Shown here in pieces: positions 47,191 to 52,947 of a stretch of 64,000 bases of DNA. A program made the translations under genes and the position numbers. The stretch is from the NCBI GenBank assembly GCA_965250285.1, contig OZ252299.1:1152001-1216000 (forward strand), read 5' to 3'. The stretch is from Myxococcota bacterium. Its GTDB lineage: Bacteria > Myxococcota_A > UBA9160 > UBA4427. The notes beneath the pieces are model-generated. The model worked only from the letters and a program-made list of their open reading frames with translations, was not told where the DNA came from and did not search any database. Each line of letters opens with the position of its first letter. Positions within the stretch are counted from its first letter, which is position 1.

Positions 47191-47218
47191 TTGACACCCA
47201 CCTTGGGCTGGCTAGAAT
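47191..47218 (+). promoter_or_regulatory. Sigma70 promoter of the str operon
   Basis: TTGACA-N16-TAGAAT, about 260 nt upstream of rpsL. Confidence 0.8.
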
Positions 47219-47478: not shown

Positions 47479-47853
47479 ATGCCGACCATCCAGCAGCTCA
47501 TTCGCAAGCGACGCAAGCCGAAGCCGGCCAAGTCGAAGTCGCCCGACCTCGCCAAGTGCCCCCAGCGGCGCGGCGTGTGCCTGCGCGTCTTCACGAAGAC
47601 GCCGAAGAAGCCGAACTCGGCCCTTCGCAAGGTCGCGCGTGTGCGTCTCACCAACGGCAACGAGGTGAACGCGTACATCGGCGGTGTCGCGCACACGCTG
47701 CAGGAGCACTCGGTCGTGCTCGTGCGCGGTGGCCGCGTCAAGGACCTGCCCGGCGTCCGCTACCACATCGTGCGTGGCACGCTGGATGCGACGGCCGTAG
47801 AGGGGCGCAACCGCGGCCGCTCGAAGTACGGCACGAAGCGCCCGAAGAGCTGA
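47479..47853 (+). CDS. rpsL: 30S ribosomal protein S12
   Basis: [17 protein letters not shown] and RVKDLPGV motifs. Confidence 0.98.
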
Positions 47854-47959: not shown

Positions 47960-48430
47960 ATGCCGAGACGCCGAGAAGTACCGAAGCGCGAAACCCCCGC
48001 CGACCCCAAGCACGGCGACAAGCTCGTGGGCCGCTTCATCAATGTGTTGATGAACGATGGCAAGAAGAGCACCGCCGAGGGGATCATCTACGGGGCGTTC
48101 GACGAGATCGAGAACAAGATGCGCAGCGACCCGCTCGCGATGTTCCGCCGCGCCCTCGACAACATCCGGCCGCGCCTCGAGGTGAAGAGCCGCCGTGTGG
48201 GTGGTGCCACCTACCAGGTGCCGGTCGAGATCTCGCCGCAGCGCGCGACGTCGCTGGCGATGCGTTGGCTGGCGCTGTACTCGCGGGCGCGTCCCGGCAA
48301 GAGCATGCGAGAGAAGCTCGCGAACGAAATCATCGACGCGGCCAACGAGCGGGGCGAGAGCGTGAAGAAGCGCGAAGACACGCACCGCATGGCCGACGCC
48401 AACAAGGCCTTCGCCCACTATCGATGGTGA
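47960..48430 (+). CDS. rpsG: 30S ribosomal protein S7
   Basis: [12 protein letters not shown] and [10 protein letters not shown] motifs. Confidence 0.98.
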
Positions 48431-48540
48431 GCCTTCGCCCTATGTCGACCCGGCCCTAGGCTGGGCGGCGCGGGGTCGAGCGGGCATCTCGAGCGTGTGC
48501 GAAGACGGGAAGCGCGGGTCACCGCGAGCCGAGTAGAGAC

Positions 48541-50610
48541 ATGGCCCAACGCATCCCGCTCGAGCAGACGCGCAACATCGGCATCATGGCGCACATCGAT
48601 GCCGGCAAGACCACGACGACCGAACGGATCCTCTACTACACGGGCGTCAACTACAAGATCGGTGAGGTGCACGACGGCGCCGCCACCATGGATTGGATGC
48701 AGCAGGAGCAGGAGCGCGGCATCACCATCACGTCGGCCGCGACGACCTGCGAGTGGAAGGGCCACCGCATCAACATCATCGACACCCCGGGCCACGTCGA
48801 CTTCACGATCGAAGTCGAACGCTCGCTGCGGGTGCTGGACGGCGCGGTGGCCGTCTTTTGTGGAGTGAGCGGCGTCGAGCCGCAATCGGAGACTGTCTGG
48901 CGACAGGCTGACAAGTACCGGGTTCCCCGGATTGCCTTCGTCAACAAGATGGATCGCATGGGCGCAAACTTCGAAAACGCAGTGGAGATGATCCGAGATC
49001 GCCTCGGCGCGAACCCGCTGCCTCTTCAGCTGCCGATCGGGGCAGAGGAGGGGTTCGAGGGGGTCGTCGACGTGCTGCGCGGCCGTGCGCTGTATTGGGA
49101 AAGTGACGATCTCGGCGCCGAGACTCGCGAAGACGACGTACCGACCTCGCTCGTCGACGCGACCGCCGCCGCGCGCGAGCAGGTCGTCGAAGCGGCGGCC
49201 GACTTCGATGACGAGCTGATGGCCCGCTATCTCGACGGCGAAGAGATCGGCGAAGACGAGCTCCGCAAGGCCCTGCGCCGCGGCACGCTCGAGCTGGGCC
49301 TCGTGCCCGTGCTCTGCGGCAGCGCCTTCAAGAACAAGGGCGTTCAGCCGCTGCTCGACGCGGTCAACGATTACCTGCCTTCGCCGCTCGACGTGCCGCC
49401 GGTCGAAGGCACGCGACCGAAGGACGGCGAGACGGTCACGCGCAAGGCCGACGAGAAGGAGCCGTTCTCGGCGCTCGCGTTCAAGATCATGAGCGACAAG
49501 CACGCCGGCTCGCTGACGTATCTGCGCGTCTACTCGGGCCATGTGAAGACGGGCGACCAGGTCCTCAACGTCAACAAGAACAAGAAGGCGCGCATCGGCA
49601 AGCTGCTTCAGATGCATGCGAACAAGCGCCAGGAGATCGATGAGGTCTTCGCCGGCGACATCGTCGCCGCGGTCGGCCTGAAGGGCATCACGACCGGCGA
49701 GAGCCTCGCTGCCGTGAAGCAGCCGGTGCTGCTCGAGAGCCTCGACTTCCCCGACCCCGTCATCTCGATCGCGATCGAGCCGAAGACCACGGCCGACATG
49801 GACAAGCTGGGGAGCTCGCTGGAGCGCCTCGAGATGGAGGATCCGTCCTTCCAGGTCTCGACCGACGCCGACACGGGGCAGACGCTCATTTCGGGCATGG
49901 GCGAGCTGCACCTCGAGATCATCACCGACCGCCTGCTGCGCGAGTTCAACGTCGACGCCAACGTGGGTCGTCCGCAGGTCGCCTACAAGGAGGCGATCAC
50001 CAAGACCGTCGAGGTCGAGGGGCGCTACGAGAAGCAGACCGGCACGACCAACGAGTACGCGGTCGTGCAGCTCGAGCTCTCGCCCGGTGATCGGGGTGAA
50101 GGCTTCGTCTTCGAAGACGCGTCGAAGGGCAGCCCGATTCCCCGCGACGCGGTCTCGCACATCGAACAGGCGTGCCTCGAGTCGACCCAGAGCGGGATGC
50201 TCGGCGGGTTTCCGGTCGCCGACGTCCGGGTGAAGCTGACTGGCGGCGAGTTCCGCGACGAGGAGTCGACCGAGCAGGCGTACATGGTCGCCGCCAGCAT
50301 GGGCATGGCCCAGGGGCTGCGCGAAGCCGACCCGGTGCTGCTCGAGCCGGTGATGAAGGTCGAGGTCGTGACGCCGGATGAGTATCACGGAGCCGTGCAG
50401 GGCGATCTCAGCAGTCGGCGCGGTCAGATCACCGGCATCGGCCTTCGCGGTCCCGCTCAGGTGATCGACGCAGAGGTGCCGCTCTCGGAGATGTTCGGAT
50501 ACGTCAGCGCGGTGCGGTCGATGACCCAGGGCCGTGCCAGCTACACGATGCAGTTTTCGCACTACGCACAGGCACCCGAGTCGGTGTCGAGCAAGGTCGT
50601 GGCCTTCTGA
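48541..50610 (+). CDS. fusA: Elongation factor G with a divergent domain IV
   Basis: [19 protein letters not shown] and NKMD intact; domain IV loops non-canonical. Confidence 0.95.
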
Positions 50611-50690
50611 TTCGAAGAGAAGGTCGAAGATCAATCCGCCCCGATGCGGGGCAGGTCGGAGCGCCGAGGCGCTCGTAGAAGGAAGACAGG

Positions 50691-51881
50691 ATGGCCAAGG
50701 AGAAGTTCGAGCGGACGAAGCCCCACGTGAACGTGGGAACGATCGGACACGTTGACCACGGCAAGACGACGCTGACGGCAGCGATCACGCAGCGGCAGGC
50801 TGCGAAGGGTCTGGCGGATCAGATGCGTTTCGACCAGATCGACAAGGCGCCGGAGGAGCGCGAGCGCGGTATTACGATCGCGACGGCGCACGTCGAGTAC
50901 CAGACCGAGGGTCGCCACTACGCGCACGTCGACTGCCCCGGCCACGCGGACTACGTGAAGAACATGATCACGGGTGCCGCTCAGATGGACGGCGCGATCC
51001 TGGTGGTGTCGGCAGCCGATGGCCCGATGCCGCAGACGCGCGAGCACGTTCTGCTGGCTCGCCAGGTGAACGTTCCGTACATCGTGGTGTTCCTGAACAA
51101 GGTGGATCAGGTCGACGACGAGGAGCTGCTCGAGCTGGTCGACATGGAGATCCGCGAGCTTCTGAACGGCTACGAGTTCCCGGGCGACGACATCCCGATC
51201 ATCCCGGGCTCGGCGCTGAACGCGCTCGAGGATCCTTCGAACGACGAGAACAACAAGTGCATCGATGATCTGATGGATGCGCTGGACGCGACGATCCCCG
51301 AGCCTGAGCGTGCTCTGGACAAGGACTTCCTGATGCCGATCGAGGACGTGTTCTCGATCACGGGCCGCGGGACGGTTGTGACGGGCCGCATCGAGCAGGG
51401 CGTGATCCACACGGGTGATGAAGTCGAGATCGTGGGCATCAAGGACACGACGACGACGACGATCACGGGCGTGGAGATGTTCCGGAAGCTCCTCGATGAG
51501 GGTCAGGCGGGCGACAACGTGGGCTGCCTGCTTCGCGGTACGGCGAAGGAAGAGGTGGAGCGCGGTCAGGTTCTGGCCAAGCCCGGCTCGATCACGCCGC
51601 ACACGAAGTTCAAGGCTCAGGCGTACATCCTGACGAAGGACGAGGGTGGTCGTCATACGCCGTTCTTCAACGGGTACCGGCCGCAGTTCTACTTCCGGAC
51701 GACGGACGTGACGGGCGTCGCGAACCTTCCGGACGGGACGGAGATGGTGATGCCGGGCGACAACGTCGAGATGACGGTGGAGCTGATCACGCCGATCGCG
51801 ATGGACAAGGAGCTTCGGTTCGCCATCCGTGAGGGTGGCCGCACCGTCGGCGCCGGCGTCGTCGCCGAGATCATCGAGTAA
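50691..51881 (+). CDS. tuf: Elongation factor Tu (copy 2)
   Basis: Protein identical to copy 1. Confidence 0.99.
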
Positions 51882-51979: not shown

Positions 51980-52294
51980 ATGGCTGACGCAACGGCAAAG
52001 ATTCGCATTCGCATGAAGGCGTTCGACTACAAGCTGCTCGATCAGAGCGCGGGCGAGATCGTCGACACCGCCCTTCGGACGGGTGCGCGCGTGGCGGGGC
52101 CGATCCCGCTGCCGACGGACATCAACAAGTACACCGTGCTGCGTGGCCCGCACATCGACAAGAAGTCGCGGGAGCAGTTCGAGGTGCGCACCCACAAGCG
52201 CCTGATCGACATCCTCGATCCGACGCCGCAGACGGTGGATGCGCTGATGAAGCTCGAGCTCGCCGCGGGTGTCGACGTGGAGATCAAGCTGTAG
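51980..52294 (+). CDS. rpsJ: 30S ribosomal protein S10
   Basis: GPIPLPT and SREQFE..THKRL motifs. Confidence 0.98.
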
Positions 52295-52296
52295 CC

Positions 52297-52947
52297 ATGG
52301 CGAACATCGACGTCGTCAACATGAAGAATGAGAAGGCGGGCTCCGTCGAGCTGGCCCCGGCCGTGTTCGAGGCCGAGGTCAAGGAGCACCTCTTTCATGC
52401 CGAGGTGCGGCGACAGCTCGCTCTGCGCCGCGCGGGTACGCATGCGACCAAGAACCGCGCGCTGGTGTCGGGCGGCGGTGCGAAGCCGTATCGCCAGAAG
52501 GGCACGGGCCGCGCCCGGCAGGGTACGACGCGTGCGCCGCAGTTCGCCGGTGGTGGTGTGGTCTTCGGCCCGGTGCCGCGTGCGTACGACCACAAGCTGC
52601 CCAAGAAGGTGCGGGCCGCTGCGCTGAAGAGCGCGCTCTCGCTGCGCCAGGGCGAAGGGGCCATCAAGGTCGTCGACGCCTTCGACGTGCCCGAGTTCAA
52701 GACGAAGCAGATCGTCGCGATGCTCGAGGCGCTCGGCGTGGCCGGCCAGAAGACGCTGATCGTGAGCGCCGAGCCGAACGTGCAGCTCGAAGCGTCGGCC
52801 CGCAACATCCCGGGCGTATCGGTGATCCGAGCCGAGGGCCTGAACGTGTACGACGTGCTCCGACACGGCCAGCTCGTGCTCGCGCAGGACGCCGTCGCCG
52901 CACTGACTTCGCGGTTCGATCGCAAAGCTGCGGGAGAGGAGGCCTAG
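52297..52947 (+). CDS. rplD: 50S ribosomal protein L4
   Basis: [14 protein letters not shown] and GGVVFGP motifs. Confidence 0.97.

Follow-up and report, generated by a model that had tools for sequence, protein, structure and literature searches.

How a single elongation factor G (EF-G) performs both translocation and ribosome splitting is debated, as is whether the tip of its domain IV, and loop II especially, is needed for splitting. Published evidence on this debate comes from Escherichia coli mutants and from specialised pairs of EF-Gs in Borrelia and mitochondria, and a division of labour between two EF-Gs is already known from spirochaetes and mitochondria. Here we describe fusA, the EF-G gene of the str operon, in a stretch of 64,000 nucleotides (the window) from a Myxococcota bacterium (GCA_965250285.1, contig OZ252299.1, positions 1,152,001 to 1,216,000). 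Its product is called type A in the following; the same genome also holds a spdEFG1-type paralog (type B) and an EFG-II-type paralog (type C). The original prediction, made from the letters of the window, had read type A as an EF-G with a degenerated domain IV tip that is specialised for ribosome recycling, beside a second EF-G that translocates. Our comparisons with homologues and with E. coli mutants suggest that type A is probably specialised for recycling together with ribosome recycling factor (RRF), and that the spdEFG1-type type B translocates.

Paired and mutated EF-Gs in the literature

In the recycling-only factors, glycines of loop I are altered: the second is Asp in mitochondrial EF-G2 (EF-G2mt), and the first is Ala in Borrelia EF-G2 (PMC8203779). 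The C-terminus of EF-G2mt is short, and the C-terminal extension of mitochondrial EF-G1 (EF-G1mt) would clash with RRF (PMC8203779). In Pseudomonas aeruginosa, the EF-G1A encoded in the str operon appears to recycle and EF-G1B to translocate (PMC3832671). None of the characterised EFG II proteins has been shown to be active in recycling (PMC9067457). Margus 2011 (PMC3150367) used location in rpsL-rpsG-fusA-tuf as a criterion of canonical EF-G (EFG I) and a three-residue insertion in switch I, with the consensus KDG, as the signature of spdEFG1, and found delta-proteobacterial copies ambiguous, assignable neither to EFG I nor to spdEFG2. Haliangium was tabulated as 'EFGII, spdEFG1, spdEFG2' by Atkinson 2015 (PMC4342817).

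Residues Q507 and H583 of E. coli EF-G contact tRNA, and replacement of Q507 by D or E gave the most frameshifting and lowered the rate of translocation, which was 20 per second, to 0.8 per second (PMC6924986). Q507H, H583R, D586V, S587Y/P and S588P are dominant-lethal and H583R is prone to frameshifting, and tip mutants still translocate, more slowly (PMC7749637). As regards recycling, deletion of loop I and point mutations in loop I leave it in place, loop II deletions and S588P abolish it, and H583K recycles but is toxic (PMC4666400).

Type A naturally has E and R at the positions of the E. coli Q507D/E and H583R/K mutants. However, those were single laboratory changes in a sole bifunctional EF-G, where they are deleterious or dominant-lethal, whereas the changes of type A are fixed in a lineage with a second EF-G. 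As in P. aeruginosa, an EFG-I-type copy with a proposed recycling role sits within the str operon and a putative translocase is encoded elsewhere. The P. aeruginosa factors, however, are recent duplicates with 84% identity, while the partner of type A is of spdEFG1 type and 47% identical, and the str-operon copy of our genome has a visibly rewritten tip. Stigmatella and Sorangium, like Haliangium listed among the Myxococcales ('EFG, EFGII, spdEFG1'; Atkinson 2015, PMC4342817), have the same inventory of three paralogs; that table gives classes only, and in our genome it is the 'EFG' copy whose tip is altered.

The altered tip and its distribution over the order

The fusA product matched the Pfam families GTP_EFTU, EF-G_D2, EFG_III, EFG_IV and EFG_C, and it lies in the gene order rpoC, rpsL, rpsG, fusA, tuf, rpsJ, which is the location of canonical EFG I. 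It reached 1013 bits with TIGR00484, the equivalog model of EF-G (cut-off 659.4), but this model does not discriminate, as it is passed also by type B, with 993 bits, and by spdEFG2-like paralogs, with 853 and 830 bits. Compared with solved EF-Gs by phmmer, it scored 859 bits with Thermus thermophilus EF-G (~60% identity) and 523 bits with EF-G2mt. The closest named records are from Myxococcota metagenome-assembled genomes (MAGs), at 67-69% identity.

All three non-canonical tip strings of the original prediction were found in the translation of 49990-50330, and in the alignment to solved EF-Gs they face rqtGGRGQYGHV, ivGGvIP and the loop H-[DE]-V-D-S-S. In loop I the second Gly is replaced by T, the Arg by T, the next Gly by N and the His by V, and the equivalent of Q507 is E505. 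In loop II the equivalent of H583 is R572, and V585, D586 and S588 are replaced by E, E and T, with S587 and E589 retained (E. coli numbering). Where canonical EF-G has a conserved GG, Q and His, type A thus has G-T, E and R. GG, Q and H are kept at the same columns in 22/22 EF-Gs from other phyla, so these changes are not chance variation. The tip had been called lost, and its key residues, including the conserved His, are indeed replaced, but the loops themselves are present: their lengths are kept, and neither alignment to solved EF-Gs nor an indel scan gave an indel in domain IV relative to canonical EF-G. An AlphaFold2 model from a 38-row alignment had a mean pLDDT of 83.4, with means of 82-92 for 10-residue blocks of domain IV and only switch I poorly predicted. 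With domain IV modelled confidently and free of indels, the tip loops of type A are rewritten by substitution rather than deleted. The GTPase motifs G1-G5 are intact, as had been noted (RGITI, DTPGH, NKMD and GSAFKNK besides the P-loop), and G1, G2 and G3 are identical in 25/25 type A copies that cover them.

Contigs from three public runs match the fusA region without any difference; the runs are of one study, possibly that of the source sample, and hence are not independent. One contig of a run (X3) joins 49917 to 50341, an in-frame skip of 423 bases that takes out most of domain IV. This joint has just 24 letters on one side and was discarded as unsupported. Six RNA runs contained 0.06-0.07 of the sampled words, too small a share of the gene to be useful, and the contigs of runs X1-X4 do not bear on expression.

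A search of the genome (one contig of 6.25 Mb, 95% complete) returned type A, the two further EF-G paralogs and one frr, the gene of RRF. The second EF-G that had been supposed to lie elsewhere is therefore present, as a spdEFG1-type paralog with an intact tip (KKQTGGSGQYG, GGAIP and SHSVDSSE in type B). Type B has the three-residue insertion in switch I and falls in the spdEFG1 clade; its best PDB match is mitochondrial EF-G1 with 831 bits, against 688 for bacterial EF-G and 414 for EF-G2mt. Type C fails TIGR00484 (611 bits vs 659), is fitted best by other 'EF-G' models, and from its sequence is read as EFG II. C-terminal tails, counted past the motif T.G[RK]..F..[YF], measure 14 residues in our type A, which is near canonical, 19-26 residues in 16/16 fetched spdEFG1-type proteins (25 in our type B) and 4-11 residues in four spdEFG2-like paralogs. 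Codon adaptation, with 20 ribosomal-protein genes of the window as reference and percentiles among 3,330 long open reading frames (ORFs), is 0.751 for type A (78th percentile), 0.785 for type B (93rd, equal to tuf) and 0.740 for type C (73rd).

The same set of three paralogs is present throughout the order. Of 40 relatives from the family and order of our genome, 28 yielded type A, complete or partial, 38 a type-B-like match, and most a type C. True loss of type A in some MAGs was considered and rejected. Four of the five MAGs without type A that were tested lack rpsG too, and in the fifth rpsG stands at the edge of a contig; type A often lies ~13 kb into a contig of 15-16 kb or at a contig end, and the stretch between two tuf copies forms a separate 15-16-kb contig in many related MAGs or is missing together with rpsG. 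The absences are therefore gaps of assembly or binning, which mimic loss of fusA. One fetched locus, L116 (G009:C274, on a 3-kb contig), is an alphaproteobacterium-like EF-G that groups with Fodinicurvata, and was dropped as likely contamination. The tallies below are thus of 27 type A copies (27 fetched loci minus L116, which makes 26, plus that of the window) and 34 type B copies (33 fetched plus our own).

The contrast between the paralogs extends over the whole order. The Q507 position is D (21) or E (6) in 27/27 type A copies, in which the tip is varied, whereas it is Q in 34/34 of the invariant type B. At the H583 position type A has H in 23 copies, R in 2 (our own and L118) and Q in 2, and type B has H in 34. 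Glycine is kept at the two loop-I positions in 24 and 25 type A copies and in all 34 of type B, and at the two positions of the middle loop in 19 and 20 type A copies, compared with 34 and 32 of type B. The consensus of type A over the order is KQ[ST]GG[ST]GD[FY][GA]VV ... DGxxHDVDSSERS, and the tip has decayed further in a few lineages, namely our own genome, L118/G008, L098/G019, L092/G018 and L115/G033. Tip decay is thus graded over the order, and our genome stands at its extreme end. When all columns conserved to at least 90% in 37 loop-intact EF-Gs were scanned, type A turned out to be fixed for another residue at only three (E to Q at 364, Q to D at 505 and A to S at 580), which makes the Q507 change a hallmark of the whole type A group. 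The spdEFG1 insertion in switch I occurs in 34/34 type B copies and in 0/25 type A copies that cover the site.

Mean column entropy is 0.85 in type A vs 0.64 in type B. The gap is widest in domain IV, the most variable part of type A (1.12 vs 0.70), and 4/12 windows with the largest excess variability of type A lie at or beside the tip. Purifying selection acts on the rest of the type A gene: in Nei-Gojobori estimates, which are rough with dS near saturation, whole-gene dN/dS of type A is 0.04-0.26, and 0.15-0.26 against the nearest relatives of our copy. On our own branch, dN of domain IV is 0.35-0.37 vs 0.09-0.19 in other domains, and dN/dS of the tip is 0.85 (vs L093) and 0.28. The altered tip is no less constrained than the remainder of the gene in four further type A pairs (tip dN/dS 0.06-0.15); a fifth pair had saturated tip dS and gave no ratio. 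Hence, for most of the order the tip is held in a shifted form, and our own lineage has relaxed it further.

Family placement of the str-operon copy

For placement, sampling took in 110 further genomes of our phylum and 40 of the phylum to which locus L071 (a Leptospira record) belongs, 60 more EF-Gs were fetched, and tip columns were removed before trees were built with FastTree (123 rows) and IQ-TREE under LG+C20 (60 rows). In the best trees, type A forms a clade (support 99 and 97, respectively) that has as its sister group the loop-intact EF-Gs from the sister order (FastTree 88, IQ-TREE SH-aLRT 97), and the pair lies within a Myxococcota EF-G group (89). The subfamily tree proposed with the original prediction sets spdEFG1 clearly apart, as a separate clade with support 100. 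In approximately unbiased (AU) tests, run with IQ-TREE LG+F+G4, fast searches and self-chosen unnamed paralogs as spdEFG2 references, no constraint that united type A with the degenerate-tip, spdEFG2-like clades was rejected (p 0.175-0.549), so the tree is compatible with either EFG I or spdEFG2 for type A, in agreement with the ambiguity of delta-proteobacterial copies in Margus 2011. An indel scan of the core gave no diagnostic indel between spdEFG2-like and canonical EF-Gs, with indels of its own only in spdEFG1, and NCBIfam holds no model that separates EF-G subfamilies. PDB scores were tried as a test of spdEFG2 identity and set aside as non-discriminating: a spirochaete spdEFG2-like paralog scored 487 bits with EF-G2mt, 482 with EF-G1mt and 673 with bacterial EF-G.

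By its sequence, type A is best described as EFG-I-like and not as a typical divergent spdEFG2. It shares several features with spdEFG2, Borrelia burgdorferi EF-G2 and EF-G2mt. Like them it is paired with a spdEFG1-type factor and no other EFG-I-type factor, a co-occurrence that Margus 2011 associated with spdEFG2. It has altered loop-I glycines, as have EF-G2mt and Borrelia EF-G2, and an altered tip, in likeness to the degenerate tips of the unnamed spirochaete and Myxococcota paralogs that we took as spdEFG2-like. To these paralogs, however, type A is 46-52% identical, and it is far closer to canonical EF-G. Unlike spdEFG2 and EF-G2mt it keeps the str-operon position and a tail of 14 residues, and so lacks the shortened C-terminal helix or tail of EF-G2mt. 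The tails of type A and type B follow the mitochondrial EF-G pattern in part.

Degenerate tips are also found in spirochaete paralogs paired with spdEFG1 and in two Myxococcota paralog clades, of which the sampled genomes G116 and G044 hold an intact EF-G as well. In these two genomes the paralogs (L173 and L174) have short tails and stand beside the intact-tip EF-G without spdEFG1. A further degenerate-tip EF-G, L168 (G065), is 58% identical to type A and has as its partner an intact-tip paralog of another kind than spdEFG1; G060 and G071, two genomes from the same family, have an equivalent paralog (L177 and L179) whose tip is intact. Eight of 20 other Myxococcota genomes that were checked have spdEFG1, with resident EF-Gs that run from intact ones to partly altered ones, none of them with D or E at Q507. 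Four EF-Gs, L157, L159, L160 and L163 (G059, G086, G090 and G095), have Met at the Q507 position (GGHGMYGHV), and in three of these genomes the Met-bearing protein is the only EF-G match. Judged from these sequences, a genome with a sole EF-G seems to tolerate M in place of Q there, in contrast to D or E.

Roles of the two factors and other readings

In accordance with a recycling role of type A, we propose that the presence of a dedicated translocase would have let selection on the frame-keeping tip contacts of the str-operon copy lapse. The change of Q to D or E would have come first, over the whole order, and loss of GG and His later, in a few lineages including our own. Type A would still bind the ribosome and hydrolyse GTP, and the body of its domain IV would drive domain II of RRF against bridge B2a, its probable task being confined to the splitting of post-termination ribosomes together with RRF. 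The spdEFG1-type factor may be unable to replace type A in recycling, since a collision of its C-terminal extension with RRF would be expected, of the kind reported for EF-G1mt.

Several points weigh against this proposal. Loop II of type A is altered at four positions (H to R, V to E, D to E and S to T), and by the standard of E. coli loop II recycling could be affected too, although the kept length of the loop and the retained S587 and E589 ease this difficulty. The altered tip is conserved in most relatives and therefore still has some function there, with free decay in few lineages. A place in the str operon, with a strong promoter match and no terminator-like site, is unexpected for a factor that is needed once per chain. 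A factor of Q507E/H583R type would also be expected to poison elongation. Some part might be played by the EFG-II paralog as well, and the difference in codon adaptation between type A and type B is modest.

Type A might instead still be a working translocase, the main one or one that shares the task, whose tip is merely odd, with the spdEFG1 copy as an auxiliary or condition-specific factor. Its location in the str operon without a terminator-like site between rpsG and fusA, its ~60% identity to canonical EF-G and its passing of the TIGR00484 cut-off would suit such a role; E. coli tip mutants translocate, just slower (PMC7749637), and changes of Q to M or GH to AE are tolerated in G059, G086, G095 and G050, which have one EF-G match each. 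We nevertheless think this unlikely, as the combination of D/E at Q507 with R at H583 joins changes that are frameshift-prone, slow or dominant-lethal in E. coli, and D/E was seen only in genomes that also have spdEFG1. Moreover, the tip varies in type A and is invariant in type B, and codon adaptation is higher in type B, where it equals that of tuf. Decay of the type A gene towards a pseudogene, or odd residues created by assembly or sequencing, would account for a tip dN/dS that nears 1 on our own branch (0.85 vs L093). This is highly improbable in view of the intact frame of 689 codons, the invariant G motifs, the whole-gene dN/dS of 0.15-0.26 against the nearest relatives, the confidently predicted fold, the identity of the contigs of three runs over the region and the related changes in relatives.

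According to another explanation, type A has a different job as a ribosome-associated GTPase, such as splitting ribosomes that hibernate or have stalled, or a role in stress, and type B or EFG-II would recycle. A tip that is altered and yet conserved in most of the order (GGSGD[FY]GVV and HDVDSSERS, with tip dN/dS of 0.06-0.15) suits a function that has shifted, not vanished. The unrelated degenerate-tip paralogs L168, L174, L183 and L185 likewise have R in place of the His, and three EF-G paralogs allow for more than two jobs. However, the genome has a single frr and no other EFG-I-type factor as its partner, the C-terminal extension of spdEFG1 type is reported to exclude RRF, and recycling has not been demonstrated for characterised EFG II proteins (PMC9067457). 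There is, in our estimate, only a small chance that this explanation holds, and recycling by type A with translocation by type B is the reading that we prefer.

Beyond the literature searched are the EFG-I-like character of the factor with the proposed recycling role, the fixation over an order of a residue that is a 'frameshifter' in E. coli, and the stepwise decay of the tip. The EFG-I-like proteins of the order form a natural, graded series in which the GTPase and the body are under purifying selection and the tip shifts and then decays. If type A only recycles, this series tells which residues of the tip can be lost without loss of recycling, and supplies a slow-evolving intermediate for the origin of factors of spdEFG2 or EF-G2mt type; annotators would also be warned that an 'elongation factor G' of the str operon need not be a translocase. 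If it does not, a translocase with D or E at Q507 is itself surprising. More tentatively, and with less confidence than we place in the recycling role, 'spdEFG2' may be a recurrent end-state and not one ancient clade, at which a resident str-operon EF-G arrives when it sheds its tip beside a dedicated translocase. The translocase could then be spdEFG1 or another paralog with an intact tip, and our order would be the process caught in steps. Were this true, the series would be a natural deep-mutational map of the EF-G residues needed for recycling and those needed for translocation only.

Coordinates of the features at and around fusA are collected below, with those of its two paralogs. On the plus strand, a sequence scan gave no terminator-like site between rpsG and fusA nor between fusA and tuf; the scan of the str operon for terminators and promoters has no firm bearing on expression.

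Features of the str-operon EF-G gene, its neighbours and its paralogs (window positions unless a contig is named)
Feature	Position	Strand	Basis or remark
fusA, EF-G of the str operon (type A), 689 aa with five EF-G domains	48541..50610	+	ORF and translation
P-loop AHIDAGKTT, residues 17-25	48589..48615	+	G1 motif
Domain IV loop I, residues 498-509	50032..50067	+	translation; alignment to solved EF-Gs
Middle tip loop SKGSPIP, residues 528-534, replacing xxGGxIP	50122..50142	+	translation; alignment
Domain IV loop II GEFRDEEST, residues 569-577	50245..50271	+	translation; alignment
Sigma-70-like promoter match TTGACA-16-TAGAAT, 11/12, 5' of rpsL	47191..47218	+	consensus match only
rpsL (S12), first gene of the str operon	47479..47853	+	ORF translation; name from reading of sequence
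rpsG (S7), immediately 5' of fusA, 110-nt spacer	47960..48430	+	ORF
tuf (EF-Tu), immediately 3' of fusA	50691..51881	+	ORF
Type B, 701 aa from MLGDISKV	G000:C1:919384-921423		47% identical to type A
Type C	C1:1091792-1093825		37% identical to type A

Upstream of the type B gene, ~850 bases are open in its frame (L002:634-1485), with no family match nearby, and the ORFs that flank this gene have no NCBIfam match. Opposite fusA, the minus strand has a stop-free frame of 738 codons (48418-50634), which resembles the shadow ORF that is usual on the antisense strand of codon-biased genes with high GC content. Two tuf copies (window ~33800 and 50691-51881), ~16.9 kb apart, flank rpoBC-rpsL-rpsG-fusA. 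Farther downstream, at 51980-52947 of the window, a gap of 2 bases separates rpsJ (S10) from the rplD (L4) gene behind it, and rplC (L3), which normally lies between them, is missing from the S10 operon here. It is found ~3.6 Mb off, at G000:C1:4836559-4837170 (TIGR03625, 268 bits).

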